A stretch of 62,320 bases of DNA, counting the filler, from Platydemus manokwari (Eukaryota), in NCBI GenBank assembly GCA_037951405.1. It is 5 parts of 5 records of this genome, joined end to end, with 100 filler letters (N's around TTAATTAATTAA, not from the genome) between each part and the next. Parts side by side here need not be neighbours in the genome. Positions count along the whole stretch, not along the records: positions 27,367 to 42,989 come from JBBMOY011266985.1; 4 more parts are not named here. One strand, given 5' to 3'. How positions within the stretch are numbered: position 1 is the stretch's first letter; each line of letters opens with the position of its first letter. A program made the position numbers and the translations under genes. A model generated the notes under the pieces. The model saw nothing but the letters and a program-made list of their open reading frames with translations. It was not told the DNA's origin and did not search any database. Positions 3,023 to 59,135 of this stretch are shown here, in pieces.

Positions 3023-3181
3023 CTAAATGATAATCCAAATAGTTAAATAATTACTATTATTCTCAACAAAGATAAAACATGATTTCAGTATGAATGAAAT
3101 ATTGACAAAACATATTTCAATTTTACAATGTCTTCGTCAAATATAATGAATTGGAATTTTTCTGGATAAATCAAAAATTTC

Positions 3182-4127: not shown

Positions 4128-4508
4128 GAATTTTCTAAGTATATGAGTGTGATTTACCAAGACAAGACTGGAAGTTTTTAGCTGATCAATTGAAATATAA
4201 AGATAGTTGTAAAAAACTGTAAAATATTGTGTTGGACTATTCAAGCAGTTAGATCCAAGAAATTTGTAAAGTCATTAACAATGAGCTTTATGAAGCTTAA
4301 ATATTTGAAAATAATTGATAAAAATTTTTAAATCAAATAAAACCATGAAGCTAATAACTTCAATTTTCTAACTTTTTTCAAAATCACTCTGACTGTCAAT
4401 AATATCTAACTAGGAATTTTTAGATCATTAGGCACAAATATCATAATAACAACATTAATTTTAAACTTTTATGTATTTGTTTAAATACTAAAACGTAACT
4501 TTTTAATA

Positions 4509-5834
4509 ATGGCGTTTTTTAAAGGTGCGAGTAAAGAGGCCCACAGAGCTTCAATTTTGAAACATCAAAGGAGTAAAGATAGACAAGAAATTGAATTTAA
4601 GAAAAAAAAATTAGAGTCTGAATTAAGTGTTGATGATGGAATCAGTAACATTTTTACTGCTCGTCAGGATACTGAAGATTCTAACTTCGCACCTGAAACT
4701 GTAGGATTAGTCACTTTGGAAGAATTAAAAGCTCAACAAGAAGCAATAATTTCTGCAAGAGAAAAACAAGCATTAATAGAAAAATTTGAAAAAAATTCTG
4801 ATAAAGATCATTTAGATAATGAGAATAAAAAGGATATTATTCAAGTAATCATTTAAAGTTTAGCGAAAATACTAGTTTAATGAAAAATATTAACATTAAT
4901 GTTTATTATCAATCTTTGTGTTCTAAAAATATATTATTAGTGTAATACTTAAAATTTATTACTGAAATCGAAATTTAGAGGGGTCCTATATCATTTGGAT
5001 ATGATGATGATGAGGAAGAAGACAGTGATGAAACAGAAGACAAGGTGGGTGTGATATACGAATTCTATTGCTTATAGATAATAGAATATTTTAGTCTGAT
5101 GAAGCCTCGCCCCCTAATAAAAGAAAACGTTATGGTGTTAATCCTAAAGTTGACACTAGGTTTATTCCAGATATATATCGCAAAGAAGAAGAAAATAAAT
5201 TACGGTTAGTAATCCAAATTTGCAAAAATATTTACATAATAAATGAAATTTATGATTTTATTGTCATTTTATTTAGTGAAGATCTACGAAAGGAATGGTT
5301 AGAAAAGCAGATTTCTATAAAAGAAGAGGAAATAAAGATCACATATAGTTATTGGGATGGATCAGGTCATAGAAGGGATATAATTGCCAAAAAAGGTTAT
5401 TCCGTACAAATGTTTCTTACAAAATGTCTTGAACAATTACGCAAAGAATTTCCAGAATTAAAAGCCACATCGGTAGATAAATTGATGTACATCAAAGAGG
5501 ATTTGATTATTCCTCATCATAATACGTTCTATGATTTTATTGTCACTAAAGCTAGAGGAAAATCTGGACCATTGTTCACATTCGACGTGAGAGAAGATGT
5601 GCGCATTGTTCAAGACGCATCGATTGAAAAAGAAGATTCTCATGCTGGCAAAGTGAATGGCTGATTGTGATGTTATTAGGTTCATTTTTAACATTTCAGG
5701 TATGCTTGAGAAGTTGGTATGAGAGAAACAAGCACATATTTCCAGCCAGTAGATGGGAACCATTCGATCCCATGAAGAATTGGGACCAGTATACGATTGG
5801 TGATAAGATGTCAGCGAAAATTGTTGTAAAATGA
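4509..5834 (+). CDS. FAM50: FAM50/XAP5 family nuclear protein; ~5 exons (approx. 4509-4844, 4979-5044, 5095-5203, 5277-5652, 5700-5834)
   Basis: Motifs [62 protein letters not shown] and [19 protein letters not shown], separated by GT-AG introns. Confidence 0.93.
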
Positions 5835-8003
5835 AATTTGTCGATATTGTTTCTATTTTGGGTTTTGTTGATGTTGTGAGAGAGGATTTGTTTGAATTTG
5901 TGTACAATTTGGGATTTTATTGTCAATGTTAAATGATCGATTTATAATTTCACGTTTTCATTTGAATTGTTTGATGATTTTTATCTCAGACACTGGATTG
6001 ATAAATTGCTTTGCTTAAGACGTTGAAAATTTTAATGCAGGTAAAGAAAATTCATTAGATGAATTCAGTATAATTTACTAGCATATTTTATTAAAATCAT
6101 TTAGATTTTTTTTATTTGAAACTTATTGCAAGAGTTATTTCATTAAAAAAAATTGCATAAAGGTTTTCTACAATATTTGTTTAACCAGTATTATATGTGA
6201 TATTAATTTAACTTTGTGTTGAAATTTCTTAATCTCATTAAATTGATTATTGGATCCAATATTGTACAATGTACGATGATATTCTAAATAGTATTTCTCG
6301 AAATATAAAATTCAAAAACATTAAAGACTTGAATAAAAATAACTGAAATCTAAACATCGTACTCAATATGTCTCAGAATTTTCCTTTCTATTTGAGTGCT
6401 TGTGTGTGGCTTGTTCTGCTTCTTCCTATGTCGATACAACAACTCGGTGGGTTTACTATGTCCTGAATAACGACGGATAGTATCTCAGGTTCGTGTAATA
6501 CTTCATGCTTCATCGGTAATGTGACAAAATCATTGCCTAATATGTGAATTACTTCTGATATTACATCTGGTGTCGTTAATGATTTCGCATCCAAATCAAT
6601 AGGGGTTTGTTATTGGATTTCTTCTTCACATGTTTGTTTTCCCACTGGTAGGAGTCAATTATTTCCGCAACTTTTGTGCTCCAGTAAATAAAGAGAGTTC
6701 AATGCTGATTGTTGACATTCACTAGGATTATGATGTATTGCAGAGGCCTGGATCAAGTTCTGATAATTATGTATTCCATAAGGTATACAGTTTTGTATAG
6801 ATTGTCTTCCATGTTGATATGTCTCCGAACGTAGTCATCTATCTGTTGACCTTTGAACCAGAGTGGGTTATCAAGCACTGAAGGGTCAAATTTGTATTTC
6901 TCTCCAATGTAATCCCGTCAAGTACTCGATTTTTGAGATGGGTCTTGTGGTTGAGGATTCCAAAATTCAAAGAGGACTCAGTGAGGGCTTTCGAAGAAGC
7001 TGTTCAGCGGTTCAAAATGTTTTGTATGAAAATCATTTTTACTGATTTAGGTGCATGACTAGTTAGTTTAGTTTTGGAATCCCACGTATCATCTCTTAGA
7101 TATTTTATTCTTACTTCCATATGATGAAACAAATTTTCTATTTTTTTTAAAGTACTCTCTAATTTCTATCAAATTTTGTATATATTACTTTCATCATTTC
7201 CTCGGAATTTATATACTTTGTGTAGCTTTTGCTTTCGATACCTGATTTAACCAGATCTACGCTTATTTTGGTTTCGTGTCCCCGAAACACAATTTATTAT
7301 TGAAAATTTTATCAGCTCGGATAATTGTGTTAATTTTGGAATTATTTCCTATTTTATCTACTTTTTCACCAGTTTCTGATTGAACCCTTTGGTCAACTTT
7401 AGTATTTTTTCCCTCTCTTCTTTTAAGTGTTCCAGCTAATATTTTTGGACCAATTTCATTGACTATAGCACCATTGATTTCTCAGACACCGTCTCCTAGA
7501 GTTCACATTTAATGAATTTAATTTGGATGGTTAGTATATTATCCTTGTCACTGGTAATTGTCGGGGATCAATTATCAACTACTCTTCACTTTGTTTATGT
7601 TCGTTCCTTGATATCATCTTCTTTTTCAATTTTGAGGTTTGTGCCATTTTCGACATTTCTAGCGATTTCTATTTCAGAGTAGTTGATGATCTTTGTTGGT
7701 TTCCTGGATTTATAGAAACTATAATTTCTGATTTTTTTCACCTGTTGAGGTTGGCATCTTATTGCGTGTGTTTTAAAAGCAATGAAATCCAATAGTTATT
7801 GTCACATTAAAAACAAATATTCCATTATAAAAGAAAAATAATAAATATTGGGTGTAATAAATTAATCTTTTGTTTTAAAAATCGGTACAATCTAAAGATT
7901 TAAGCTACTGATTTAAAGCTGAAATTAACATATATAAATTGAAATTCTTTTTATTCACTTGAAATTATAAAATTTTGTTTTTGAAATTTTATTTTATTTT
8001 GAT

Positions 8004-24179: not shown

Positions 24180-26270
24180 CCTTGCCCGGTTACAGTAATA
24201 ATGTAGTTTTACAATTTTTCCATTGATCTGGAATAGTTTTACTTGCTAATATTTTATTAAATAAATTTAATAAGTAATTAAGATTTGGATCTAACTTATA
24301 CCAGTCACTAAATCTTATGCCATCGGAACCAGGGAACGAATTTGATAGTTTGGTTCATCTAAAGTGGTCAGTTCATCTAAAGTAATGGGTTTTAAATTGG
24401 AATTATCTAAGCCTATAGGTAAGTCTGGGTTGAAACTAGGTGGTAATGATGGTGGTGGTGGAATTATGAAAAGGTCAATTATGTTTTCTAAATTTGGGAA
24501 TGATAAAAGGTTTGAAATATGTTGGATAATAAATAATCCACAGTCTGTGTCGTTAATTTGTTTTGGAAGATTTGGAATAATAAAATATTTAAATTAATTT
24601 TAGATAAGTTTTGAATTAGTTTATCTAAAGTAGTCCATAAATGTTTTTGAGCCTCAGTTAAATAAAAGGTTGCGGGATCTATATAATACGAATAATTTTT
24701 ATTTAAATCAATTATATATAAATTCCAGTACCTATTATCATATGGAGATATTTGAATATCTTCAAAAGTAGAGTCGATATCCGTTTCTATAATTGTGTTC
24801 CTATGTTCGTCATTGTGGGACTTGAAAACCTATAATATTGCTTATAAAACTACAATGATATAATATATTAAAATCAGCGGATATTTCTTTATTATGTTTA
24901 TCGTTGTAATGTTTAATTATGTTTTTACTATTAGTATATGGGAAGACATAAGTTTTATCACAGTTTATGCAACTGGATGTCCTATCGTCAAGCATAATCA
25001 TATGCACAGTATTATTTGGAGCCTCGCCATATATATTAAGTGATGTATTAAAAGAGCTATTGGGCGTGTGTCCTATATATTCAATTTCTGAGTCGGAGGA
25101 AATAATTTTATCATCGGGATCAACATTGTTGGAGTTGTCGGTTTTAATTTTTGTATTATTTATGATTATTTCATTACTTATGGGGGATATCGGTCTTATT
25201 TGATAGGGGGTAGGAGTAGTATTTGAAGGTTCATCTATGTCAACGGTTTGGATAGATTGATCATTGGGAGATATAATATTTTTAACTACATTGGTATCTA
25301 AAATCGGCGTTGTTAAATTTGTTGGAGTTGAGTTAATATAACCTCGATTAACGGTTTGAGTAAACCTGTCTAATTGAGATTTGATTAATTGGTCAAGTGA
25401 TGGTCTATCTATAGGGACATTAATTTAATCATTAAGATCTATTAAATTATCACGTTGGTCAGTTTTGAGTTTAGATTTTAAACTATGAAAATTATTCATT
25501 GAAATATTATTACGTAATAAACACATATTAAATTTATTTAAGTTATTAATATTAATTTTATTTAATATAGTTAATATAATATTTAAAAAGATTTAGTCTT
25601 ATTATAATTGGGTCGGTTATCAATAGTTAATTTAAAATTATTTATGCAGATATTGTTATTAGAGTTATTAACGTTTATATGGGGAAATATATATAAAATA
25701 AAGTTCAAAAATATGTTCTTCGTCAAACTGGACTGCTCACTTTTGTGATCACAGTCATACGCCTGTCTACCCCTAAACTGGATGCTCTGGGATGCGGTAG
25801 AGGGACTATTGTTCGTCGGTTTCGGGGGTGTGGCATTAGTCTGAGTGGATCTAGATTTATTAAAATTAGATTTTTTATTAGAATAATGGTAATTAAAAGG
25901 CTTATAAATCGGTTTTTGGTTATGGATTGATTGTTGTATATCATCATTGAAGTTTTGGAGAGCTTCATATCTATTTTGGCTTCGGAAGTTTGTTTTTGGG
26001 TTGAAATGGGACTGTTGTGGGGTCCACTTGATAGGCATAATGTAGTTATCTCCTGATTGTTGCTGAAGATTCCGATTGTTAACATTAGATGGTATGGGGA
26101 CAGGAGGTAGAGGGTGTGGGATCGGGAATTGTTGGTTTGATCTAAAGATGGGTGAATTATTTACAATATTGTTATTACGTACTTGATTATGCTGGGGGTT
26201 TTGTTGTGATTGTAGAGCAGTAGCGTATGATATCGGTGCTTTATTTGATCGATTCTCAATGTGGAGTGAG
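24180..26270 (-). pseudogene. Second diverged N-terminal ORF copy of the RLE element (SYATAL, NRYEAL, QSIQFRGRQA-DCDH, zinc fingers)
   Basis: ORFs 25583-26038 and 24810-25007 are homologous to 21103-22975. Confidence 0.7.
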
Positions 26271-26284
26271 CTTTGAGGGATAAT

Positions 26285-26600
26285 TGGGAATCTTCCCAGG
26301 AACCTAAAACTATATTGAGCACGTCTAAAGTTGTTTGGTGTTTTTTGGTCATTGCTATCTCTTGGGTTAAGTGTTTATATTTTTCATAATTAAGTGACCT
26401 ATGTAAGTTAAAGTTGGCGTCTATATCGTACGGGATTTTAAGGTCAATAATATAAGTATGCTTTTTCGAGTTATTTATTATAATTAAGTCACGTAGTAAT
26501 TTAGAGCTTATTTCTACTGAGGTTGAATCTATATCAGTGTCGATCCCTAATGATTGAAAATATTTACATATAATTTGTAGTATCATGTCGTTGCGTTAGT
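26285..26600 (-). pseudogene. Restriction-like endonuclease domain fragment
   Basis: RNDMILQII...KLLRDLIII...IIDLKIPYD...EKYKHL...LGSW fits the RHD / R(P)D / D-x-K / K-x-x-KY / LG-x-W pattern of RLE elements. Confidence 0.85.
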
Positions 26601-26695
26601 ATTATGCGCCCGAGCAACCCCTATTTGGGGCAGTCGCAAGGGTCAGCCTGCTCGAAGTGCAATTATCAGGCCTCACCCTGAAGGGTACAAATCTT
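26601..26695 (-). ncRNA. U1: U1 snRNA fragment (SL1 3' strand, SL2 with AUUGCAC loop, SL3, up to the Sm site start)
   Basis: CAGGGTGAGGCCTGATAATTGCACTTCGAGCAGGCTGACCCTTGCGACTGCCCCAAATAGGGGTTGCTCGGGCGCATAAT has the pairings AGGGT/ACCCT, GCCTG/CAGGC and CCCC/GGGG, and contains the U1A-binding ATTGCAC. Confidence 0.92.
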
Positions 26696-27369
26696 GAACT
26701 GCTGCCAAATAAAATTAAAAAAATTAAAAATAAAAAAAATTCTAATATTTATTGCATGTAAATATGGATCTTCACGAGGCGGTGGGAGAATCCCTCACCT
26801 CGACTTTAAAAGTTGTATTGAGTTTGTTTTTTATATTGTTTGCCTTGGTGAGCCAGCGTCATGATTACCTGGTCTGATGGAATTTCGAATCTTCGAAGTT
26901 TCCGTTTTTCTTCTCCTTTTTTGATTTTTTGCAATGTTTTTGTTGAATTGAGAGCGAATAATATTTTGTTGAGTTACGAGCCCGGGAGATAAGTGGGAAT
27001 CCTCAATCATCGAAGCAGTATAGCTAAAATGAGAAATAATATAAAGTAGAAAGTCTAAGTTATGAAAATTAAGTTGAAAATATAATGAAAAAAGTTATAA
27101 TAGACATTAACTAATACTGTTAGTATAAGTAAATAAATAATAGAAATATATACTAGAACCAGAAACAAATAGATACAGAAACAAATACCTCAATATACCA
27201 GGTTGAGTCAAAAGTTATTCATGTTTTTATGCAGGTATTTTATTAACACAAATTGTTATAACGCTGNNNNNNNNNNNNNNNNNNNNNNNNNNNNNNNNNN
27301 NNNNNNNNNNTTAATTAATTAANNNNNNNNNNNNNNNNNNNNNNNNNNNNNNNNNNNNNNNNNNNNATA

Positions 27370-36575: not shown

Positions 36576-37531
36576 GGCTTAACTTAAAAAATGGGGCCCG
36601 AAAATAAAATTTTAAAATTGTGTAGTGTATTGCAAAAATCTATATAAATTATTTAATTAAATTCTTTAATAACGTTTTGAATTTTTTATATAACTACTTG
36701 AGTAAAATTTAAATTGTTTAGAATCAAATAATACATGCACAGGATTTTTAAAATCAATTATTTTAAAAATTAATTTTTAAAATAATTATTTAAAAAGCCC
36801 GTCAAAGCAGGTCAAAATGCAATTAATTATAAATTAGCGATGACCACTTCTTTTAACATTAGAAGCAATCACAATGATATCTAGGATTTTCAGAGTTATT
36901 TTATAAAAAAAAGTGACTACGAAATTATTGGGAAGTGCCAGGAACAAGATACTTGTTTTTTCTCTCAAAATAAGTGTAATAATATTTATTTAATAGATTG
37001 GATACATCGATTGCTAATGTGTCGATTTTGTAATGAAATGAAGATTTGACCCAAATCAAAAAAATCGTACAGGTGGAGATGCCACACATATATAACTTTC
37101 GGAATTCAAATAACGACTTGGGTCAACAAATCAGCCTTGTTTCTTTTCGATATCCATTAGTAAACTAACAATCAATAAATATTGACATTTTTTTTAAATA
37201 AGACCAACAATTAACAATTATTTATAGAGATACAGCAAAATTTGTAGATTATTATGCAATATAGAAATATCTTCGCATAGAAATATTATTGAAGATCTAA
37301 ACATTATCGTAGAAATTATCGGGGAATGTTTTGAAAGTGCCAAAGATAGTAGCAGGCATCGAATACATGATTTTTGATTGTTAGAGTTGATTATTTGTTA
37401 GTAATCTAAAATTGAATTTCATGTAAAAATTTCTATAAAGTATGATTAAAAATAAATTTTAATATAAAAAAACTTACGAAAAGTCATTACTTTAAAATTG
37501 AGTCAAAGGACCCGTTTTCCTAACTTAAGCT
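36576..37531. mobile_element. MITE copy 2 (same family as 3182-4127) with 8-bp TSD AATAAATA
   Basis: AATAAATA|GGCTTAACTTAAAAAATGGGGCCC ... GGACCCGTTTTCCTAACTTAAGCT|AATAAATA. Confidence 0.82.
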
Positions 37532-38374: not shown

Positions 38375-39185
38375 TTTTATTTAAGTACTTGAGTAAAATG
38401 ATAGTTATTTAGAATCAATAATATATGCACCGGATTTTTAAAATCTCCTTTAAATTAATTATTTGAAAAACCTGTCCAAGTAGGTCAAAATGCAGTTAAT
38501 GGAAAATCAACGAAGACCACTTATTTTAACGTTAGAAGCAATTAGAATGATATCTAAGATTTTCAGAGTTATTTTATAAGTAACTTTAAAAAGTGACTGC
38601 TAAATTATTGAGGAGTGCCAGGAACAATGTACTTGTGTTTTCTCTCAAAATAAGTATATTAATATCTATTTAATAGATTGGATACAAAGATCCCAAACTT
38701 GTCGATGTTATAATGAAATGAAGATTTAATCAAAATCAAATAAATTGTACAGGTGAAGATGCCACAAATATAAAAGTCTCGGAATTCAAATAGGAGCTTG
38801 CCCCTTTTTGATATTCTGAATAAAGTATTTTTGGTGCAAGGTGCTCACACAAAAAATTATATTTAAAAACATATTATACTTACAAATTCATTAGTAAACT
38901 AACAGTCAACAATTGTTGACCATTTTTATTAAAATAAAACCATCAATTTATTGATTTACAACAAAATTTGTAGATTCCTCGCCAATCAAGAAATATCTTG
39001 CCATAGAAATATATTTTAAGGTCCAAATAATGTGGTAGAAATTGCCAAGGAATATTTTGAAGACATAATATATTTTTAATCTAAAATTGAATTTTAAGTC
39101 AAAATTTCAAAGAATAACGATTAGAAATAAATTATTATATCAAATGTTATATCACGAAAAGTCATTACTTTAAAATTGGGTCAAA
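38375..39185. mobile_element. MITE copy 3, truncated (TIRs lost)
   Basis: The interior matches copies 1 and 2 (e.g. TCTCTCAAAATAAGT, GATGCCACAAATATA, CGAAAAGTCATTACTTTAAAATTGGGTCAAA). Confidence 0.75.
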
Positions 39186-39619
39186 TTCATTTTGCATAAA
39201 ATTAAATTGTGGTCAATTTCTTAATAAAGAAAATAAAAATAATAAATTGTTGTTAATATTTATAACAATAATGTTTTGTTTTATCAATTTTGTTTCTTGG
39301 CCAGATAAATAAGGATAATTTATTATTTTTCTATAATCAGACATTTAAATGAATAGAACTATTTAGTTGTTAGGTGCAAACTCTCAAATTATTTAATGGT
39401 TATTTGATATTTTATTAGGGATGACATTTATTTCTAGGTATTTTATTTAATTGATTTTTATTTTAAATTGATTCTTCCTCTTGAATATATCAAACAATTA
39501 TTGAGTAATAATTATAATAAATATTAATATTTTATATCTACGAAATATAAATCATCCATATAGGCCTTTTTCCAGAAAAAGGTTTTTTCAACCTGACTTT
39601 TATAAAATATTAAGATAAA

Positions 39620-41276
39620 TCATTCGACTTTAGAGTTTAATCGCATATAAAGCCCGTGCAATGAACAAATGAGAGAAAGGATATAGCATCACTTGAAAAG
39701 AATCACTCGGCATATACTATTTCTGTTTACATTTCGATCATTATCTGTATGATTAAAGAATCACACTTAGAATGGATCACAAAGCAATTAAATCAGTAGT
39801 AAAAAATAGAAATATATAGTACCACAAATTCAGATGTGGCTGAATTATCTTAATACATATTTAGACATCAACATGATATTTATAAAGGATTACTTATATA
39901 CAAATATGTTCTCCAGAAATACTATGACATATATGGACAAAATTAGCAGGAAATACCAGTATCTGACACCAAAACCTACATAAAATAAAGCAATAAGTAG
40001 TAAGAAAGTTCACCTCAATGAACTCTAAGAATATAGCTATTGATCTTTGACGGCCAGGTACAAAATTATTTTTACATATTTGTTGGATGAGCCCCCACAA
40101 CATAACATGTAAAATAACAATAACATTTTTACAACACAACATGTAAAATAACCTAGTGTACATATAACCCAGTATATATATAATTGCATGCAAGTGACAT
40201 AACCCATATAATATAACCTAGTGCATGCATACAGCTTGAGCACCACATAGCCCAACGTATACATAACAGTAGCAATGGTGATAACCCTGATTATAAACTG
40301 ACCAGAGAAAAAACAAAAGAACATGCTCAATAAGGACAGGCCGGCCAGTAACAATCCAATCAACAGTCCCGTTTAACAATAATAACAATAAATCGAATAT
40401 TGATTGATTTTGCAATTTTGCTTGCTTTTGATATCTGTTATTAGCTCGAATAATAAACACTTAATGCAACTTTTGTAATTGTATATACCGTATTAAACAA
40501 TTATTAATTATTTCTGATATGCTATTAAATATGGTAATAAACTTTAATCTCTGATATGATATTAAATTATTGATTTATTTATTATGGTGTATTATATGTG
40601 AAAGCGGACAAAGAAGACGATGCGAGAGAAGAGTCGATAGCGCGAATGAATGTAGCTTGATAATTAAATAATATAAAATAAATAAATAATAATTAATCAA
40701 ATTAATAGAAAAAAAAATTAATATAAAGTACAAAAGGTTTAATTAGACCAATTTAGATCAATTAAAATAGGCATGTTAAAATAATTACCTAAATAAATTA
40801 TGTGATACAATTAGTAATCCCAAGGTGTGAAATAAACCAAATTAGGTGTGAGAAAAGTGGTGGTTAAGCGTGAAAGAAAAACAGGTAAGATAAAACGCAT
40901 ATAAATACCAGCACTGATAGAGAACCACCACCATTAAATTTATCACAGCGAATCACATCTATAACTGTCAGAAACTAATTATTGATTTTCAACGGACGAA
41001 CAGTCAAATTATGGAATCACTATCAGCAGCATTGTTCGAATCTGTTATCGAAAATTACGTGTTGACATATTATCGAAGATACGCTTGGAGCTACTATATC
41101 ATAGTTGGCTCGTTATTGAAACGTTGGAGCTATTATCCAGAATTTTTGGGAGCATTTGCGGATCTAGCCGATTACTTATTTTTCGAGAATTTAATAGTAA
41201 GAGTTTTTCTTTTCTTTTTCATTCATTTACGCTCACATTTATTAATTAATAACTTAATTGGTCATTTATGATAACA
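39620..41276 (+). mobile_element. 3' remnant of a Ty3/Gypsy element: RNase H fragment, antisense ORF, LTR-like segment
   Basis: IAYKARAMN..EKGYSIT.KES.GI...HFDHYLY...LRMDHKAI is a Gypsy RNase H pattern. A TG...CA segment at ~40588-41276 contains TATAAATA. LTR limits are approximate. Confidence 0.6.
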
Positions 41277-42004
41277 ATTCAATTGTTAAAATATTTATTC
41301 GCTATGGATAATTAAATCTCCTGCTTTGTCGAAATAAATAAAGGCGGATATCTAAGCATAAATTTCGAAGGTCTAGTGAATTCAATTTTCCATTAAATTG
41401 TAGTAAATTTTCTAACTTTTAATAACTGTTTTTCATTTACGTTATTCCCTTTAATTTTAAATATTTTGTTTGAATCTATTTCTTTTGTAATAATATATTC
41501 TGTTCAAATATCAATAATATTTTCAAATATAATTTCAATTACTATTTGAAACTTATTACCATCATCCCCAAAAATGAAATTTAAAATATTATCAGTTCTG
41601 AAATATAAGAAATAATATTTTTTTCTGGAGAATGTTTAATGAATATACAAAATTAATTACAAAGTGACAAGTAATTTTAAAAAATTAAACGGAATTTTCC
41701 CAATAAAATTTTGATTGACTATTTTTACATGCTTCTTTTGAATCCGCGTGCATCAATCCTATAATAATTATATAAATGGTTTGAGTGAATATTTTGGTTT
41801 TTACACAAGATCAAAGAGTTTTATATTTAATATTTTTATTTTTAATAAAATGTTATTGATAATATTAAATCATAATATTCGTTAAAATCTTTCCGAGTCA
41901 CAAATCTTGATAAATTTTATTAATAATAACAATGAATTTTAACATAATTGATGTATAGAAATATCAAATTACAAATTGACTCTGCTGAGTTTAAAATAAA
42001 TCCT

Positions 42005-42125
42005 TACAGATTCAACATTTTTACGACATTTTAGGACATTTGACAAATTTCTCATAACAACCACTGCAAAACACGTGATCGCATGTTATATAGTTATATC
42101 ATCGGTCTTGCAAACATCGCATTCC
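42005..42125 (-). pseudogene. Frameshifted C3HC4 RING finger (IAP-type C-terminal RING)
   Basis: ECDVCK...TCDHVFCSGCYEKFVKCPKCRKNVES, recovered across two frameshifts. Confidence 0.6.
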
Positions 42126-42554
42126 TATTTTATAAAAAAATTGAAATCGATAATACTCTAATGAATAAACATTGTTTTGTCCTGTTTCAGTGTTACTAAT
42201 TATAGAGCATATTTTCAATGCATCATCTGATGATTGCCCTGAAAATTATCTTGAAAACACATTGAAATCTTTCTTAATTTCTTATAAGATTCTATAGTAA
42301 TTTTTACTGCCTTCTCCTTTTCTTCCATAAACAATGATTTTTGGAATGACTTTCTTCACAATCGATGCCATTTCTAGTTGACAAACCAGCTTCAAAGGTG
42401 ATTCATTTTTTTCAAATTTGTGCTGAATCTGAGCTAGAACCCTCTTTTTCTATCTACTATAAGCATAAATAAAGTTAAATAATTGTAATTTATGTGTTTT
42501 ATTTAGATATTAAAGTCATAAAATTACTTCTAATTAAAAAAATATTCATTTAAA

Positions 42555-42737
42555 ATGAATGAACCCAATTTGGAATTTCATTGTACAGTATGTGTTAAAT
42601 ATTTTAAAAATAAAACAGCTTTAATTTCTCATAAAAAATCAATCCTTCATTTAATAGAAGCGGGGGAAATAAGAGCAAGAAAAGGTAAATTAAATAATGA
42701 TTTTAAAAAATGGATTTATAAAAATGGATCCAAATAA
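42555..42737 (+). CDS. Small single C2H2 zinc-finger protein
   Basis: FHCTVCVKYFKNKTALISHKKSILH. Confidence 0.6.
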   Translation: MNEPNLEFHCTVCVKYFKNKTALISHKKSILHLIEAGEIRARKGKLNNDFKKWIYKNGSK

Positions 42738-42989
42738 AATCAGATATGATGTTTATACTAACGATAAATTATCAGTAATCGATATTAATATTCGTTATCC
42801 TGATCAAAAAAATAAATTAGAATCTTCGTGTGATCCTAAATTAGGAGCTAGTAATGTAGGTTTATGTAATTTATGTTATGTTAATGATAGAAAATGTAAA
42901 GGTCATTATGGCAAATTAACAACAGATAAGATAATACCTAGACCTACTATAATAGGTAGTAGAGTTTTTAATAAATTTTTAAAATATAT
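42724..42989 (+). CDS. Divergent DNA-directed RNA polymerase largest subunit (Rpb1/beta' domain 1) N-terminus, truncated by a gap
   Basis: DPKLGAS-x4-C-x2-C-x6-CKGHYGKL matches the clamp zinc motif DPRLG...C-x2-C-x6-CPGHFGHI. The upstream INIRYPD resembles AKIRFPE. Confidence 0.72.
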
Positions 42990-43899
42990 NNNNNNNNNNN
43001 NNNNNNNNNNNNNNNNNNNNNNNNNNNNNNNNNTTAATTAATTAANNNNNNNNNNNNNNNNNNNNNNNNNNNNNNNNNNNNNNNNNNNNTATTCTAACTA
43101 CTTCAAATCGAACGTAACCAATCGTTTGGAGTCCGATTGGCATTATACGAGCACAGTAACATCTAAAAAAGTGCAACCAACTCAAAACCACCAATAATCC
43201 ACCAAACCTCTATATCTGTAAAAAACCAATAAATATATGGTCACTGATTTTATCTGGTTTTCCGTATCTTTGGTGATCTTGTGGCTTGGTTCATGTAATT
43301 GTAACCTATGCATATTAATTCATTGTCCAAACAAAATTTCTCTGTTACCACCATGTCTCGGACATTACTAATAATCGTTTCGCCCATGCCATTTACCGAG
43401 TGTTTGTATGGTATTCTTGCTTTATTCCAAAACGTATCGCTAATCATTTCATTTTCTTCCATTAATGAAACTACCCCGATCAATGAGCAATGATTTTGGA
43501 GCACCATACCCATAGATACATTAATTGATGATAGACTTGAAAATGTTGGGATCCCAATCTAACATTCATTGGTAATAATTATCAGAGAATATATTCCCAA
43601 ACACATGTACATAAAAAACAATATATAACGTCTTTATATTTCCAATTGTAGTTACACTGCATTTACATAAAAACAATTCATATAGACATAATACCCTAGT
43701 CTATGGACCACATCAAAATATTTACTACAGTGATCTAGCTGAGTTCTCAATCCAATCCAGCCCAGAGCAGTAATAATCCCTGTAACAATCATGATCATTG
43801 TGCTGATACTTATAACAATTACATTATTTTGGTTTTCTGTATTGACACTTTTATGTTGAATAATCTTTGTGAAAACGTATTTATGTTACAATCTTTATA

Positions 43900-44540
43900 A
43901 TGTAACGAGGTGGAGGAGAGAGAGATAGGAGAGATTGCCAAAATAAAATAAAAAACATAAATAATAAATATAGGAGATAAATAATAATGAATATATGTAT
44001 AAGTATAAGAAATAAATAATAAAATAATAATAATAATAATAAAAGTACATCATATTTACAATAATGAAAACAGCATGGAATACAATTATCACGAATAGGT
44101 AACTGATTAGAATGGAATGTCGACAAAACGCAAATTAATTATCAACGGTAACAGTGTTACCAAAAATAGAAGGAGGAGGCTGGTCCAGCAAGGTATAAAT
44201 ACCGAGATGAAAACAAAGCCAAACACACAGCAAAAACTTCACCACAGTAAAAACACGAACGGATTAAAGCTTTCATCTACGAGTCGGAATATAATTTGTC
44301 AACAACCAACGTGCGGAGAGAATATATTTGGAAGAGAAACGTTCAAAGAGGTAACTAATTTCATACTTTTTGAAAAACAAACTAGAGCAGGGTAAGGTCC
44401 TTTTTTATTGTAGTAATTTTATGATCCATCATTTTTAGAGTCATAATTTCAATTAATAATATAATAATAATATAACATTTTTGATTGTAACATTTAAATT
44501 ATATTAGCCATTGATAATAATCGTTAATTGATAGTAACAT
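43900..44540 (+). mobile_element. LTR-like segment preceded by an antisense membrane ORF relic (43250-43860)
   Basis: TGTAACG... start, internal TATAAATA and ...TAACA end; same layout as 39620-41276. Boundaries are approximate. Confidence 0.4.
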
Positions 44541-45049
44541 TACACAGCCATATTTGTCTACGACTATATATTTTGCCAATAACTCTCTTTTATTCAACAT
44601 ATCTTTCTTCCGTCCGCTTCGGACTTTGCTGGCTACTTGCTGAGGCAACGTGCCGGCCATTCATTCATATTTTTGTGTTATAATTTCAGTTCTGTTCCGT
44701 TGTTCTTTCTGAAAAAATATATCTATAAAGATATAATCTTTTTGATTTGGAGATAGATTTATACAGAAATCAACCGACTCATAAAAATTAATTTGCGTAA
44801 AAACTCCAAGACACTTTTGTACAATAATTAAAATGGTTGATTAATTTATTCAAGTTTGCAGCGTCGTCAACCAGCTTCGTCATCACCAAGGTGAAATAAC
44901 TCCATCCATTAAACTAACCTTTAGATAACCATATTTCTAGTAGTAAGGTCTCCATCCATACCCGCTATTGAAGCCCCTCATAGGACCAGTAAAATAAGCT
45001 AAAATACAGCACAATAACAAAAAATATTTATTTAATAAAAATACCAGTA

Positions 45050-45565
45050 TTGTCTTGTCGAATAAATGGCACTAAGCTTGCTAACTTAATGAATCTTTCA
45101 ACAATAACCAAGAGATACTTGGTTTTAGTTATAAATTCTCTAAAGTGCGAAACATTCAACCACAATCTGTTCAAAAGAACAGACTATCTTTAGCACAAAT
45201 ATCACAATTCCGTACTTCACGTTCGATGCTTTGTGATATATTTGGCCACAAGTAAATCTTGTGACTGTAATCAACCAATTTCTTATTACCGATATAGTAC
45301 AACACCTCATGAAGGCATCTTGTTAGTTTCTGCGAATGAACCCCTAACACAACAATTCGCTTATTTCTATTCTCATTATATACTACCATATCTTTAAACA
45401 GTTCGTATTTCTCTAAAGTGTTAAAATTTTTGCTTTTCTAGACTGCTTAATTGATTTTTGTTTCCGTTTTCTGTAACCATTTTCGAATGGAACAAATGAC
45501 AGTATTATCGGGATAATATACCCACTCAGGCTACAAGCCTTATAATATAATATATTTTACAATAC

Positions 45566-45596
<31 letters not shown>

Positions 45597-48500
45597 CAAT
45601 ATAAATTCACATTGATTAAAATGCAGGCGTGTGGTCGAAATTATATTAATAATAACCAGAAAATTAAAAAAATTATTAATTCACCTTGCCATGGCATTAA
45701 TAAGCGTAGCAAGAGAAATTCAAATATAAATTCAAATTTCCATGACAACTGTGGATATTTCCAAGGAAATTAGAAAATAAAAAATAAAATTAGTCATTGG
45801 CTCACTTCCCAAATTACTATAAATACTGAAGCAAAATTCAGTATTTTCACCACAAACTTAACTAATTCTAAGCGTAATTATCAATTCAATACTCGGCGGA
45901 CCTTATATCTAAATTTTATATTCATCAACATTATATGCCAACTTAGCAAATGGTAAAATTTATTTGTTCACTTAACAAACTGATGTCATTCAACGAAAGT
46001 AGAATTGTTGTCAGCAATTAATACGTCTCGCAAATTTGTGATTGAATTTGTGAGTATTAAAAAAAAATTTCTTTAGTTTGTATACAGCAGTGGGAAGCCA
46101 CTTAGTTCCTTCCGGCGGTTTTTCATTACTGATAAAACTCTTCAGAGCACGATAAGCTTCTCTCTAAAATCTAATAACATTGCACATTTGATAATTTGTA
46201 ATATAATAAAGTAGGGTATCATAGCCTTATTATTTTCAGTATTTATATTAAAATACATGCAACCTAATAAATCTGTGAAATTTCAGAAGTTTCAATCTCT
46301 AACTCACGGTCTTACACCGAATAATGTAGTAAATTATGGATTGAAAAATCGTTGATTTATTTTTAATCAATCATCAAAGAACCCGAACCTACCAGTTTCC
46401 ATCAGTATTTTCTTGTTGAATCTTTCTTAGTCCGTCATTATTTGCAATGGAACGCTCAACATAAAAAATAAACCGACTTTTTTTGCTTGTCTTCTTTAGT
46501 TGCTTGGTGCTAAGTTAAGCACTGTAAACAAAATGATTCACCTTTCTTTGAGAGTCCATTCTTATTTCCCTGAATTGATCCCTTCGAAATTGAATCCGGA
46601 TGAGTTTGCAAACAGTTTTTAAAACTGAGGGCTAGCCGTTTTGTTGGTTTTCTTCATGTATGTCAATGCTTTGTGACCAGTGGGAGTCACAAATTTCTTT
46701 CCTAGCAGATAATGTTTAAACTAAAGGATTGTCAAAAGTTTCTTCCTCATGACGCGATAACCTTTTTAATGACAATTAAGAGTTCTAGAATCATAGGGTA
46801 TTACTTTCTCTTTCACCGTGTTATACAAATGGCTTGAAACGGCGTCAATCACTCCGAAACCAGAATCGGTGTCTAAAATCATCTCTTTATTTGGATCAGG
46901 AAAGGGTAAAATTGTTCCTTTATGTTTCCAAAAGTTTCCTCACACTCTGCAGTCCACTCCAATTTCTTGTCACTTCCAGTCATCATAGCATATAACGGAG
47001 CCGTAACTAATGCGTAATCCTTGATAAATCATCTGTAATAATTGCATAATCCTACGAAGGACTTTAGCTGAGTGATCCAATATGGTTTTATTGCTTCCTT
47101 AATCTTCTGTTCCTTGTTGTTATTAGTTTCTATACCTTTTACATTAACTACATGAACAAAGAATTTCAATTTTCTAGTTCAAAAACACATTTTTGGGAAT
47201 TGATTTTCTAAACTGATGATTTAATCAATTTTAAGTCGAGTTTCTCATTGTTTTCTTCTATTGTTCTTCCATACATTAAAATATTGTGCAGATAAAGAAG
47301 AATGTTATTGTTGATAAAATCCTTAAATATCGCATTCATTAGGTTCTGAAACTTGCAGGCGCAGTACATAATGTAAAAGGTAGTCTATTAAAATAAAGTG
47401 CCCAGTTCTAGTTCTGAAAGTCGTGTTTAACTTAGAATCTTCCTCAAGTTCGACTTGATAATATGCTTGGCCTAAGTCTATGGTGGAGAAAACTGTCGCG
47501 CCATTCATCGAGTCCAATAACGTTTGGATATCAGGTACCAGAAAAGAAAACCTCTCTCTCTCTCTCTGTTCGTTTAATTTTCGGAAGTCTAAACACATCA
47601 TGATTGATCCATCTTTCTTTGAAACAACGACCAACAAAGAGTTCCAAAGGCTTTTCAAGGAGTTATGACATTACTTTCAAGATTTTCTACCAACCATTGA
47701 ATTTTGCTAAATTCATCCAAATTTTTCTAAATTTATCGGTTTTCTTTCTGGGGTTTTGCTCAATAGGTTCCTCTTTTATTCGGATCTCTTGCTTGATCAA
47801 ACCTGTTAGTCTTATTTCAAAATAAGACGCCATAAAATTGAGCCATTTTCTTTTATATAGCTATTTAATAAAATATCATTCTTAACAGCAATACTCTTCA
47901 GTGTCATTTTGATTATGTCTTGGTGATTGTATTTCCTCCCGATGTCCTTGGTATCAATTGACTTTATCCCTGCAAGGAATAATCCATAAGTCTGGTGAAA
48001 TATCTTCTACCACAACGATCTTACTAGAATTTTGTTCCAAATTATTGGGATACTTATTTTTCTTAGACACAATCATGTGTATTGGAGAATACACCAACTT
48101 GTCGAACATCAGAATATTTAATCTGCGGTTCTCCAATCGCTCTCAATTATTAGTGTTATAGATGCACCAGATTCCCATAACATTTCAATATGTGTACAGT
48201 TGCATTCAATTTTACTCGAATGTCTACCAACTGCTTTCTGATACATCTTTGAGTGCTTTCTCTTCCTTTTGCAGTCTTTCTTTTTCACTTTTATTCTATC
48301 TCTAGTTAATATATGTTCTATTGACTCAATCCCACTGACGAGATAGGCACATGAGGTTGATGCCAGGTTTTTCTGATTCATGGAAAGTGAGATAATATAA
48401 CCGCCTGTTTCACTTTCATTCATAATATCGGCTTCACCTTTTTCGTCATATTAAACATTTTTCCGCAGTGGACATTCAATCATCCAGTGTCAAAATTCAC

Positions 48501-48850
48501 CGCAGCAAAAGCAAGCTCCTGGTTTTAAATATTTACTACATGTTGTGAGTTTTCCTCTACAATCGTTGCAAAATTTAGACTCAAGAGACTTCATTGACCT
48601 TGTTGGTCTTGTATTGTTTGGAAATTTCATGTGATTAACTGATGCACGATGATATTCCTTTACACCAAAATCTCTTTCCTGCACTATTGGACTTATTGTA
48701 AGAAGTCTTTTTCTAAAGTTTTTTCTCGGGTCACTTTGAAATCCCGACTGAGAATGTCGTACTGGAGTTAACTCCTTCAAATTGACAGTCAACTCTCTTT
48801 TCCTATAGTCAGATGTTGCAGAGTTGAGAGTAAAGGACTCTTTCAATTTT
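45050..48850 (-). mobile_element. Degenerate Ty3/Gypsy gag-pol (CCHC, protease, RT, RNase H, integrase zinc finger)
   Basis: CFCCGEF.HW..ECP; LWESGASITLI; WNS.LVVVSKKDGSIMMCLDFRKLN...FSTIDLGQAYYQV; ILDTDS; LGKKFV..TGHKAL; H...WPNI...VRNCDIC, in Gypsy domain order. Confidence 0.88.
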
Positions 48851-51800
48851 TTGTTATTTGGACTTTGTAGAAAAATAGTCTTGAAATTTCTTCAGAAGTG
48901 TTTTCTTTTCCTGCATTTCCGTTAGCTGTTTCTTTACCCGAGCTCATAATTTCAGTCCTTTTCGTGTAGTTATTGTCGCATTGATGCTAAATCCTGAACC
49001 TTGTCGTTTTCTGTCTTAGTTTGTGTGAAGTGTTGGAAAGGTGCCCCGATGCACTCAAGGGTAAATTGATATGGACGATGAGGGAAACTGGTGTTGGGTG
49101 GTTTATGTTGTTGTTTATTGTTATTAGGTTCAACTTAACAGCTTAATTTCTTCAATATGATTTTAAAATTATTACTCGAATCAAATAAAAACAATTAAAT
49201 TACAGTTTAATTTATGAAAGTACAAATAGATTCACAAAATTAACTCAAAGCAAACTTTTAACTCAAACCAAATCAGTCACCTGGGAACGTGAGAACCTAT
49301 GATTTTGCCTTATAAAATTTATTATAGATTTTATGCAATGTTGCGGTTCTGGCCCAATAATTAATTCACATTGGAAAAAAATGTGTATACATTTTCATGA
49401 CAATGCGTATGAAATATGCGTTAATTTTTATTGTGTCAACTTTTATTTTATCAGCACGTATTCTTTGTTTTAACAACTCTTGGAATTTTGGGCAAAAACC
49501 TGTTTAAAATATTGATATTTATGATAATTATTATTTATATATACGTAAAATAATAATACCAATAAAATCGCCATCAGCAAATCCATCGAAATTCCCTAAA
49601 ATAATAAATTAATTTATAAAATATCAATACGCAATAAGATTTCGCGCATTAACACGCGACAAATTAATTGTCAACTATTTTCGCCTATGAAGATCATGTC
49701 ACAGAATTAAATAATTACTTTATTAAATTTAATTGGGGTGTATTTTCTCTGTCTGATAAATTTACTCAGAGAGAATTTCTCTCACCAGTGAATAAATTCT
49801 ATCGATAAAATAATAAATTTACTGGAATTAGATTTAATCGCAGAGAATATCTGCGAATGATTCACACTGCCTATATAAGGCAGTAACCAAAATCAATAAG
49901 GATACTATTTTGATATAATTTTAGTTGACACAATACCGCTATTATTTTAGCCCGACGTTATACGCTACATAAATTGGAGAAGACACATCACTTGAATCTC
50001 AATTTAACGCACTGAGGATATCTGTTGCTAAAAACCAGTTTTCACGTATATACCGGGCATTTGCTGGAAGACCCAAAGTAAGACCATACCTGTATAATAC
50101 TAATCTATATTATATACTGTATCGTTTTATTCATATTATGGAGTTTGTTACTCAAAGATCTTGAAGGTAACCGGTTTTGCTGCAAGAGTGTGCAGCTTAT
50201 CAACCGCCATCTTAGCCCAGGAGTTGTAAGATTTGTCTTTAGCATAATTTGATGTATAGTGTATTTTTCAAAATCAACCTGTAATTTTTATTTTAGTTTA
50301 TGATAATCTGTTTTGTATAGGTGTTATATTTAATAAACATTTGTAGCATTAAAGTTTTAGTTATTATTCATATAGGGATTGTAAAATTGTTACTCATTGT
50401 TATTGACATAGATAATAGTTATAATTTTATAAAACTGATACTGATGGTTGGTTGAGTAAAATATATCACTACTGCCACACCTATTGTCCTCACAAAATAA
50501 GGTTGTGCGAGGTGAAGGAACAGCAACATAAGGTATATTACGCCTGTGGCCTTAATCAAGAGCTCGTTAACACTGATTAAGTCAGTAGTGGTATCAAATA
50601 GGGTTAAGTTTAGTTAAACAATAAAATCAATAAGGCCCGAACGTAACAGTAATATTGATTCCTAAGATGAGACTCTTCATAATTCATAATATTTATTATT
50701 ATAATTATTAAAAAATATTGTTGATTTACCTTTTGGTGTACTTTTCGTGTTATACTTTAATTTAAGATTTTTCAACTCGAAATTTTTAAGAGTGAATTGT
50801 GATGGAAATCCACTTTATATAGATGCTGATGATTTTCCATCACTCTTGTAAATTTTAAACATTTTTTACTACTTTATCCCTTAATTATTTATTCTTTTAA
50901 AAGTCCCTTAACCTATTACTATTAATTTAACCAATACTATTAATTTGGATGACATTATAAACCTTTAATATATAAATTGTAAACCTTTAAAATTATTTAT
51001 TTTATTTATTTTTTAATCTTTGCTTATTTCTGATTATAATTACTTAATTTATAAATAATAATATATATTTCATTGACATAATTTATTTACAGATTTAATT
51101 TCGGACTTTTTATAAATAAAAATCATAAAATCGAATCATAAAAAAATTTCATCAATAAAATTTAATATCAGAATTATCAGATCACAAATAAATTGACAAA
51201 GTTGAATGAATGATGTAGTCTTTTAATGTGACATTAGTCATTTTACTGTATAATCAATAATCTATGAAATTATTGTGTTTGATTATATTTTATAGTGGAA
51301 TCTGTTTGTATAAAAAGCAGGGTAAAGGAAGCAAATGTAGGAAATGGTTATCAACACTGAGAAATTATTAATTTAGGAAATAATTAATCAATAAAAGATA
51401 TATAAATAAGTAAGAGGAGCCAATTAACAAATCGTAAATATCAGACATGAAGAAACGCACATGGTTAAAATAAATAAATATATAAAAGATTATTAAGTAT
51501 TGGCAACTATCAAATAATTATCATAATTAGCTGAATAATAAGTGACGACAAATCACGTAGACGTGGGCGTAAGGACCCAAGCACCTATAAATACTGTGAT
51601 AAGATTCAGCTAAACCACCACTAACACTAAGTGATAACCGAACGGCGAGCAGAAAACTAACTGATAATAATCTTAGTTATTCACATTAATCTGACAGGGT
51701 CAATATTAGACATTCACGACAATCGATAATCTTTGACAAAACTTGGAATTATTCTATCGAATCTTACAGAAGGAGCGAGTTACGAGAGTTCACTAGGACA

Positions 51801-54800
51801 TTTTATTACCGCACAACTTAAGAGTAAGGATCGTTTATTGCCATATCGTTTTTATCATTCCTGAATTATAATTTAATAGGTAAACATAATTTAACTACAT
51901 CGTTTAACTAAAGTAACCATTGTGTCGATAATTTCACTTTTTACTAAAACTCTCCTTCGACCCTCTTACGGATTCGCTGGTTAATTGCTTAGGGAAGTTA
52001 CTAGTTATTTGACTTATTTCTTTTGTGCTCATTCATACTAATTGTTATTTTTGTATTTTTCCTAAATAAATATTTTTTACGGCATCCAGTGGGACTTCTT
52101 GATAATTAATAAGAACTCGTAATTTCGATTAAAAGTTTGACGTCAATAACCCAGAAAAGGGCACCGTGAACCAGCATAAAATATTATTAAGGCGTAAATC
52201 TGAGATATTATTGTTTGTATCAACCTTGGACATTCATTCACAATTCAATCATTTTCAGGCCCAAAGCAGAATTAGTTCCTCTGTGCAAAAGACATTTTAT
52301 TAGATTAACTCTTTTTCCAGAAATAGAGTAGTCAACAATGTTTAAATTCAGAGTTGATTGCAATAATTTTGTTATATATTTTTTGTGAGCCAATCCCATT
52401 TTTTGTCTTTGTTGATAAATTGCTTCATCTAGTGGGCGTGTCTGGGAGTAATTGTGATTTTTGAAAAAAAATTGCCGTTATCCTGGCAATGCTATTATTT
52501 CTATTATTTTTATTCCTTTGGTTTACTGGTAACTATTTGATTTTATTTATTTTCTTGAGGTTATTTCAATGTTTCTAATATTNNNNNNNNNNNNNNNNNN
52601 NNNNNNNNNNNNNNNNNNNNNNNNNNTTAATTAATTAANNNNNNNNNNNNNNNNNNNNNNNNNNNNNNNNNNNNNNNNNNNNGTGTCTATTTTAGGAATT
52701 ACGTCATTACTATTTTAGGACTTTGGTCTATTTATGTAATTTTAATTATGTGAAATTATTGTGAAATTATGTGATTGTATTGTGGGCGTAATATGTTATT
52801 TGATGATTCACTGTGGGTGGATATTGGATCCTAACAGTTCATATTGGCGGGACATCATTGAATTGATAAACTTTTTCTAAGTTGAAGATGAATGTAGTAT
52901 AGCATTGTAATAATAAATAGACGGATTGAATTGTACCAATTAAAATGTATCAATTAAAAGATAACTTAAAGTGCGAAGCATTCAAGAAAAAAAACATTTG
53001 AAAAGAACAAAAGTGGAAATAAGAAAATCAAATTTGAAATGACGAAAAATAAGTGATATTCATGAAAATTATGAGAGAATAATAATAGTAACGTCATTGA
53101 ATCAGAGAAGATAAGTGACAATTAAACAATTCATTTAAATAATGTTACAAAATTTAATTCAAAACAACTGAGCGTCATGCATATTGAATTTTTGTAAAAT
53201 AAGGTAACAATACCTAGATTCATATCAAACTGCATTTTTACTTGTAGCAAATAATTAGCCATAGGATAACGGAATTACTCCAAGTCACATATTTGGAAAG
53301 AAGCAGAAATTCTATACCAATACTTGGATTTAACGCAAAGGAAAAACCTGAGAAGATATCTATTGGAGAGAAATTCAAATAGTAACATTAATCACACTTT
53401 TTTGGAGCACTTAAATTTTTTATTGTATTTTCAAGAAAATGATAACAAATTATATATTATTTAAATAATTAAATATTCAAAGTATCTGCTAACATTTTAA
53501 TGTTGAGATTTTTCGATATGCCTCGTGTGGATATCGCGTGATTAGGTAAAAAAAACAAACAAACAAATATCTATTTAAGACAATGATTAATTGGTTAACC
53601 GTGATAATTCACGACTTATAACATAGATTCTCTCTTGCGATTGAACCTATTATCACATTTCTCTTGGCTACGTCCAGTAGTTGATTGCTTATTAATCGTC
53701 TTTTAGCAGCATATCGCGTATTTTGATAATTCTTGTGCTGTTTTTTTTCGAATTGTTAAATTTTCCTTAGTTAAAAGTAAAGCCTATTAAAATCGTATAT
53801 GATATATAATGTTGAAAACAGAAGAATTGAAGGTTGCAATTTTTATTTTACTGAATTGTACAAAACTGTATGTATGTAAACGACTCCAAAAATCAGTATA
53901 TAACAACGGCATAAAACTTGGCTTCCAACTTGTAGTGGAGCATCTTTACATCAATATTTATACCTGAGATCTGTGTGTAATTTTTGTATTATGTTTAGAT
54001 TTGATCTTTAATTTCTCAATTAAATTTAATACTTTTATGTGTTCAGAACTGGTCAATCACTATGTGGGTCTAATTGTGTAGTTATGTCAATTTTTCGAAT
54101 TAAAAATTTCCATTTAAGTCCTCTCTGATTAGCTGATTGCTATGCCTTTATGGTTATGTCAGCATTCAAATACCTAAAGTGCCAAAATATTAACGACAAG
54201 CATATTCTAAATTACAAAATAACGCTCAACCTTATTTCAGCCAGAATTAACGTCTCGCTGCCGCAATTCATTCATGTATTACAGCTACATGCAGATAACT
54301 TCAATTTAACCTGTAATTAAATCTCCATACTGATTACAGAAGCTCTCTAGAACCCGTGATAGCTAAAATAAATTCCTACCCAGTAATTTATTATACAATC
54401 ATAGTTTATGCTTTGAAAATAAATAATAAAAAATACAGGATAAATAATATTTAATTAATATTTCAATCATAATCTTGTTGCAGTAATATAAAACGACAAG
54501 TAACTATTACTTTAAGAAGAAAAGTAATTTTTATAGCAATTTCAGCAGAATTAAAAATAAAAATGAATTATTTATTGAAGCATTAAAAATATAACGATGG
54601 ACAAACAACCTGTTCATACATTACAAAATGAAAAATATTGATTTAAATTTTACTGCCAATAAAATTAATAAAATCTTCATTATATCAAAAATAAGATTAT
54701 CAAAAGGCATATAAACACATAAAAATTCAGAATTATACACAATTAATGAGCTAGTCTAGTTTAAATAAATAATCTAAAGCTATATATTTACTGCTAATTT

Positions 54801-58550: not shown

Positions 58551-59135
58551 TCAAATTAAATGGGTTTGTATGTTTGGCGTTATTTTAAATTTGTATTGGA
58601 ATGGTAACTCTAAATCTTTGTAAGGCCTATCTGAAAAGTAAATCCTTCTAATTGTGAAATTAGCGTTTACAACCACTCTCAGAGTTTGAGCATATGATAT
58701 ACCGTAACATTCACTAGCCAATTTTTCTAAATCAAGCACAACCGTATTCCAATTCGGATAGAGATCAATACGCAAAACAGTTGTAAATGGATGAATTATA
58801 ACTACTGGTGAAAAATTATTAACTCTAAATTTTCTTTTAAAACCACTCCTATCTAGAATTTCAACTTCAAAACTGAATGCGGTGTTGGTATTTTTCGTGA
58901 TCATAACAAAATACCTCATACGAATTCCCAATACGTCTTTCCGATTTTTAGGACATTCTATAAAATTATTCACTGATGTTGGGCCTTTGAAATCTAAAAC
59001 TAAGGAATTGATTATCGAATCAGTTTGCCTTTTAATTATTCCATTTTTGTTTTCCACTTTCCAATTTAAACATGGTTTATTTCCAATACTGTAAAGAATG
59101 GTAATTAAACCGCGTTGACTAATATTATGATACAT
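58551..59135 (-). CDS. CFAP20: CFAP20/BUG22 family protein, divergent, single exon
   Basis: Q.GLITILYSIG.KP..W..NG.IKR.TD, FSFEVEILD, W N.V.DL, Y.QTLRV.V.AN..IRRIYFSDR.Y. Confidence 0.88.
   Translation of the reverse strand: MYHNISQRGLITILYSIGNKPCLNWKVENKNGIIKRQTDSIINSLVLDFKGPTSVNNFIECPKNRKDVLGIRMRYFVMITKNTNTAFSFEVEILDRSGFKRKFRVNNFSPVVIIHPFTTVLRIDLYPNWNTVVLDLEKLASECYGISYAQTLRVVVNANFTIRRIYFSDRPYKDLELPFQYKFKITPNIQTHLI

Follow-up and report, generated by a model that had tools for sequence, protein, structure and literature searches.

Poxviruses replicate in the cytoplasm. They are described as two subfamilies, one of vertebrates and one of insects (bioRxiv 10.64898/2026.09.02.748683), and their entry into animals and spread between phyla are presented as an open question (bioRxiv 10.1101/2024.03.23.586382; PMC6943099). 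In the literature covered here, thinly for subscription journals, the only precedent for endogenous poxvirus-like sequences is a set of isolated fragments in ant genomes, where three Poxviridae-like EVE fragments are reported, including an RPO147 piece in Linepithema humile that falls outside the entomopoxviruses (PMC6540820). Two further kinds of relatives are relevant. Egoviruses (proposed Egovirales, bioRxiv 10.1101/2024.03.23.586382) are described as relatives of poxviruses that leave core genes, including RNApolA, in the genomes of their hosts, and yeast linear plasmids/VLEs (e.g., pGKL2 ORF6; PMC6211774) are described as compact AT-rich elements with a poxvirus-related polymerase.

The locus described here lies in a 62,320-nt stretch of DNA from Platydemus manokwari (hereafter, the window; 27% GC, with four 100-nt spacer gaps). 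It resembles the ant EVEs, with which it is compared by description only, in being a likely endogenous poxvirus-like fragment, but differs from these isolated cases in probably belonging to a multicopy family. Its central feature (Table 1) is an intronless ORF that has no stop codon and is still open at the gap, contains the clamp zinc motif (CNLC...CKGHYGKL) as well as IPRP, and overlaps the end of a C2H2 zinc-finger ORF, its ATG at 42724 preceding the end of the stop codon of the latter. All of these features had been pointed out in an earlier sequence-only reading of the window and were re-observed. That reading had also called CKGHYGKL and IPRP non-canonical; both motifs are present, and the residues are of poxvirus type (CFGHWGKV in vaccinia). 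Another in-frame ATG is found at 42697, and alignment of Met1 with poxviruses prefers 42724. A 13–14 nt unit, repeated about three times over the polymerase start (42690–42729), gives rise to these two in-frame ATGs in a near-identical context. Third-position GC content (GC3) is 0.08–0.13 in the polymerase and zinc-finger ORFs vs. 0.26–0.28 in four host exons, and a search with full-length poxvirus Rpo147 as query found no other Rpo147 pieces in the window, including the part beyond the gap.

Table 1. Features of the polymerase locus and its immediate surroundings (positions along the window).
Feature	Position	Strand	Remarks
Decayed RING-like ORF, 5 internal stops, RING-like C-terminal motif	41991..42449	-	Stops translated as X; oriented head-to-head with the zinc-finger ORF
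TAAAATG at zinc-finger ORF start, putatively initiator-like	42551..42557	+	Motif likeness
60-aa ORF with one C2H2 finger (C-x2-C-x12-H-x5-H) and basic tail	42555..42737	+	Overlaps polymerase ORF by 14 nt
TAAAAATG at polymerase start, putatively resembling the poxvirus intermediate/late initiator	42719..42726	+	Motif likeness
Predicted poxvirus-type Rpo147 5' end (largest RNA polymerase subunit, clamp and first zinc site)	42724..42989	+	88 codons; searches, alignment, tree
Assembly gap of 100 nt that cuts the polymerase gene (N44-12 nt spacer-N44; the window has four such identical spacers)	42990..43089		Gypsy-type remnants after gap, no viral genes

Among 177,635 PDB sequences the best match of the 88-aa ORF was vaccinia Rpo147 (E 7.3e-5), with RPC1 and RPB1 at E 0.045; Pfam matched RNA_pol_Rpb1_1 at E 0.0098, below cut-off. 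A search against 1.84 billion representatives yielded two matches, one of which (P0002), a repeat-rich protein, was discarded as a chance match. The other (P0001), a protein of 353 aa from a 1444-nt ENA contig, is 97% identical to the window ORF and extends the gene. It is colinear with 14 poxvirus rows from Met1 over about 350 aa and has the compact clamp with both zinc sites, the second of them located in P0001 beyond the window gap. P0001 matched vaccinia Rpo147 at E 6.9e-27 vs. 5e-6 for RPB1, and its best blastp matches are to salmon gill poxvirus (SGPV, E 2e-33) and lumpy skin disease virus (E 5e-33). In profile comparisons it scored 140.7 bits against 15 chordopoxvirus rows vs. 85.6 against 20 non-poxvirus rows, while seven held-out non-poxvirus viral rows displayed the reverse pattern (46–87 with the chordopoxvirus profile vs. 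214–420 with the non-poxvirus profile). No close or longer relatives of P0001 were returned by a word search or found in IMG/VR, JGI metagenomes or phages. Predicted structures were of low confidence (pLDDT 31 from the single sequence, a weak 51.6 for the alignment-based model), and the best fold matches of the latter were chordopoxvirus Rpo147, a ranking that is biased by the chordopoxvirus rows used as input and provides no independent evidence. Taken from the N-terminal 353 aa at most, these comparisons establish the window ORF as the predicted 5' end of a poxvirus-type Rpo147 with poxvirus affinity. The catalytic NADFDGD motif, located at about residue 413–415 in poxviruses, lies past the ends of both the window ORF (88 aa) and P0001 (353 aa); judged on the predicted clamp alone, the ORF would behave like Rpo147.

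Side by side with chordopoxvirus Rpo147 (vaccinia J6R, PDB 6RFL chain A, and SGPV165, to which locus L029 corresponds by coordinate match), the query shows the same colinearity from Met1, GHxGK and both zinc sites, the first motif being located at about residue 48, but it is only 24–29% identical, sits on an animal contig and exists in many variants. Its upstream neighbor is a C2H2 ORF, whereas J5L/J4R in vaccinia and SGPV164 in SGPV are described at this place. Entomopoxvirus Rpo147 is represented by two rows retrieved by motif from IMG/VR records of 236,120 and 232,392 nt (L307 and L295, which we take to be MSEV and AMEV). These have in common with the query the poxvirus stem, AT-richness and, presumably, an invertebrate host, but differ from it by weak blastp scores (E 7e-7 at 23% identity, and 0.11) and by GHPG in place of GHYGK.

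The sequence-only reading had described the enzyme as of viral type as opposed to a host polymerase and had proposed a phylogeny as a check, and both the search scores given above and the trees bear this out. The query joined poxviruses in each of four trees, with support of 99 (quick tree), 100/100, 100/100 and 100/99 (the last with the two entomopoxvirus rows), and an AU test rejected its grouping with ant RPA1 (p 0.028). The later trees (LG+G4) comprise 19–20 chosen rows, with near-duplicate poxvirus and NCLDV rows left out; they contain RPA1 but no RPB1, RPC1 or verified egovirus row, and RPB1 and RPC1 were compared by search scores. In the tree with the two entomopoxvirus rows, poxviruses divide three ways, into chordopoxviruses including SGPV, entomopoxviruses and the query, the identity to the query being 23–29%. 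In the best trees the query lies outside the chordopoxviruses including SGPV (98/98, 99/98, 99/97), as well as outside the two sampled entomopoxvirus rows, which form a 100/100 branch of their own (length 1.38); in the best tree it is the deepest of the three branches (support 68/63). The query branch is long and compositionally odd, and the AU test did not reject its placement next to SGPV (p 0.11), a grouping with the non-fish chordopoxviruses (also 0.11) or a sister position to one of the two subfamilies (0.32 and, for the entomopoxviruses, 0.21). The trees place the query as an apparent third long poxvirus branch outside both groups sampled, chordopox- and entomopoxviruses, several branching orders being compatible with the AU tests. 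Judged by the Rpo147 gene alone, the source would belong to Poxviridae, and we assign it to neither of its subfamilies. The top non-poxvirus RNA polymerase on the chordopoxvirus profile (120 bits) was found on a 306,481-nt IMG/VR contig (L040) and is possibly egovirus-like.

Of the two neighboring ORFs, the zinc-finger ORF matched nine Pfam families at E values no higher than 1, none of which reached its cut-off (best 3.9e-4), and its first match in the ESM Atlas is of C2H2 type (0.96); we regard its assignment as a putative zinc-finger protein as less strong than that of the polymerase. The decayed RING-like ORF matched Pfam zf-RING_5 at E 0.0053, below cut-off, and a RING regular expression, written after the motif had been seen, had one match in the window and none in 100 shuffles. 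RING genes are described as frequent in large DNA viruses, poxviruses among them (PMC4542343), and this ORF likely belongs to the same viral segment as the polymerase and zinc-finger ORFs. Another possible decayed ORF (41213–41755, minus strand), read with X, gave no match. Both intact ORFs (2/2) have a TAAA(A)ATG lead, compared with a window background of 140 of 2037 ATGs. These starts resemble the poxvirus intermediate/late initiator motif described in PMC11980589, and starts of the TAAA/TAAAT type would lend modest support to poxvirus kinship; at the same time, vaccinia J6R is described as an early gene, and a TAAA-type start before Rpo147 departs from the vaccinia pattern.

Parts of the studied region are contained in four public sequencing runs (X1–X4), with no RNA data set listed among them. 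In X1, 954 contigs align on 41300–42989 (about 1.7 kb) at 85–99% identity: 176 at 99% or above, 253 at 95–99%, 358 at 90–95% and 167 under 90%. The copy count that had been suggested as a check, made here on run contigs, points to many copies. Tens of variants are present in X1, where 22–45 contigs differ at single ORF sites, and there are likely hundreds. Summed contig depth, which does not represent a copy number, reaches 12,998–56,416 in the polymerase ORF. In the zinc-finger ORF, which other copies also have, it is roughly tenfold lower (about 2,000–6,200), and in the flank at 41699–42382 it is 32–141; the RING-like ORF has diverged low-depth copies. Eleven contigs diverge from the window sequence 10 nt upstream of the polymerase ATG, and therefore other copies have a different upstream neighbor. 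No contig joining the flank to the polymerase ORF was found among the X1 contigs. Among the best-supported 40 of 105 variant rows, polymerase variants at eight sites fall into those shared between copies (4/4 synonymous) and those private to the window (3/4 residue-changing), two of the private changes affecting columns otherwise common to poxvirus rows; in the zinc-finger ORF, 5/7 variants from the same 40 of 105 rows are nonsynonymous. In X2–X4, which carry other organism labels, the ORF appears in small shares at a depth of 2–14 per contig. X3 and X4 also contain a high-depth repeat from 41445–41555, and the signal in X2–X4 likely reflects trace DNA of the same animal and is not taken as evidence of host range. 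This second diverged repeat, which lies past the RING-like ORF at a distance of about 450 nt, reaches a summed depth of up to 34,000 in X1; it has no protein match and could be a host repeat or another part of the element.

The surroundings of the ORF are those of an animal genome. The window encodes animal Kv2 (E 6e-83 to KCNB1), Sar1 (closer to mammalian than to yeast Sar1) and CFAP20, with introns of about 50 nt, and the gap-free contig at 27367–42989, which has repeats in common with other contigs of the window, contains, 2.9 kb upstream, what is left of a gypsy RNase H (about 39640–39810, E 6e-11). Gene density, the small introns and the divergence of conserved proteins would suit a host that is neither vertebrate nor insect; exact look-ups of 16 translations from the window gave no match. 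The ORF is contiguous with this host-like contig and signs of decay are present, which together support integration, i.e., an endogenous state at the assembly level. The sequence-only reading had proposed an integrated element without assigning a family; its integration is backed by these observations, and the family now narrows to a poxvirus-lineage Rpo147. Pfam searches of 39300–42554 and 43090–52582 detected no second poxvirus core gene (rpo132, capping enzyme, D5, D13, A32, entry-fusion complex); the right end of the element falls into the gap.

We consider it probable, with room for reasonable doubt, that the ORF is a copy, now in decay, from a large endogenous family derived from an undescribed deep poxvirus lineage. 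The source virus would have had compact overlapping genes with TAAA(A)TG starts, which it would transcribe itself by means of a multisubunit polymerase like that of vaccinia. As long as the virus replicated, selection would preserve the polymerase protein, as suggested by the synonymous nature of the shared variants. Fragments of the viral genome, not all with the same gene upstream of Rpo147, would reach the germ line on repeated occasions, after which the endogenous copies would drift; the residue-changing private variants and the broken RING-like neighbor point to such drift of the window copy. A long terminal repeat at the locus would explain the assembly break, for which high copy number may be a simpler cause. 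A bolder version, which we put forward tentatively and consider doubtful as it stands, is that a third major poxvirus lineage, with a host that is neither vertebrate nor insect, has become an endogenous element that propagates itself, is present on the chromosomes in hundreds of copies and encodes a multisubunit RNA polymerase of its own, making it the poxvirus equivalent of Teratorn. If true, a branch as deep as both known subfamilies would reside in the genome of another animal, which would bear on the routes by which poxviruses reached animals and crossed between phyla, and a multicopy germ-line family would be an unexpected lifestyle for poxviruses.

The observed abundance of copies may also be accounted for if a Polinton/Maverick-like or Teratorn-like self-integrating element took up poxvirus transcription genes and made copies by its own integrase. 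No integrase is known from poxviruses, which counts for such a carrier, and the high copy number and graded divergence fit an integrating element. As precedents, egovirus genes are described as having entered polintons of Parabasalia (bioRxiv 10.1101/2024.03.23.586382) and Teratorn as a transposon-virus composite (PMC10175614). Nevertheless, the scanned flanks (39300–42554 and 43090–52582) contain no pPolB, retroviral-type integrase, capsid or terminal inverted repeats, and six-frame scans of 39300–42554 and of the contig after the gap found no Polinton or transposase family; such transcription genes had, according to the account in PMC6211774, not been reported in polintoviruses as of 2018, and a gene of about 3.9 kb requiring several partner subunits would be heavy cargo. 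We regard a carrier of this type as unlikely, if worth keeping in view. Quite improbable, in our estimation, is a freely replicating virus of the poxvirus lineage that infected the sequenced animals and was mis-joined to host DNA in the assembly. The very high ORF depth, the synonymous shared variants, the lack of a bridging contig in X1 and the ORF traces in three runs with other organism labels would all be in line with it, and a mixed infection or a pooled sample could yield many variants. However, with 525 of the 954 contigs less than 95% identical, the diversity seems too great for one clonal infection; some residue changes occur in the window copy only, and its neighbor is broken; most of the RING-like ORF is covered by an X1 contig of 749 nt that matches the flank exactly (depth 32); and the co-occurrence of the 41445–41555 repeat in X3 and X4 points to the same animal and not to a common virus.

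Where the source belongs can likewise be read in other ways. It is very improbable that it was egovirus-like or of another lineage sister to poxviruses, perhaps infecting a protist that lived in or on the animal, even though egoviruses are described as a proposed sister order of poxviruses with RNA polymerase genes left in protist genomes, and the query is the deepest of the three branches in the best tree. The long, fully supported stem ties the query to poxviruses, the short N-terminus and the compact clamp are as in poxviruses, the AU test rejects grouping with the only possibly egovirus-like L040 (p 0.0016), and the flanking sequence is animal; egoviruses, set beside the query by description and not by sequence, are reported from gut ciliates and parabasalids. 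Still less credence, close to none, can be given to a divergent host RPA1/RPB1/RPC1 or to a polymerase of a yeast-type linear plasmid. For the former, the weak matches to RPC1 and RPB1 and the divergence of another host gene (CFAP20, 147 bits to known CFAP20) may be invoked, but Rpo147 is preferred by 21 orders of magnitude in E-value, the RPA1 grouping is rejected, there are many diverged copies, and the ORF has no introns. As to the latter, which the sequence-only reading had entertained under the name of cytoplasmic linear plasmids, the plasmid polymerases are themselves poxvirus-related; as described in PMC6211774, however, they are beta/beta' fusions devoid of almost the whole clamp, whereas the query is a stand-alone N-terminus bearing the clamp from its own Met, and the plasmid option falls away.

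Several other features of the window and of the searched collections deserve mention. The CFAP20-family gene (58554–59135, minus strand) is intronless and, by its low score to known CFAP20, may be a fast-evolving orthologue or a paralogue; an intron-containing gene at 4485–5664 (plus strand) presumably resembles FAM50/XAP5. Decayed gypsy-type pieces (reverse transcriptase, RNase H, integrase zinc-binding) occur at about 45200–47660, as also at 39640–39810. A dispersed repeat of about 1 kb is present in three copies that are 73–80% alike (3183–4127, 36576–37530 and 38375–39185), and a minisatellite of 31-nt units occupies 15230–15663. At 18987–26831, an element that has long Asn-rich ORFs is present as decayed copies in tandem, with a 39-nt motif in common; we take them to have the look of an R2/NeSL-type non-LTR retroelement. 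Finally, two metagenomic IMG/VR contigs of 93.6 and 78.3 kb (L161 and L185) contain the motif that served to recognize the early transcription factor of poxviruses in surroundings of 16–23% GC, and are possible unrecognized AT-rich relatives of poxviruses.
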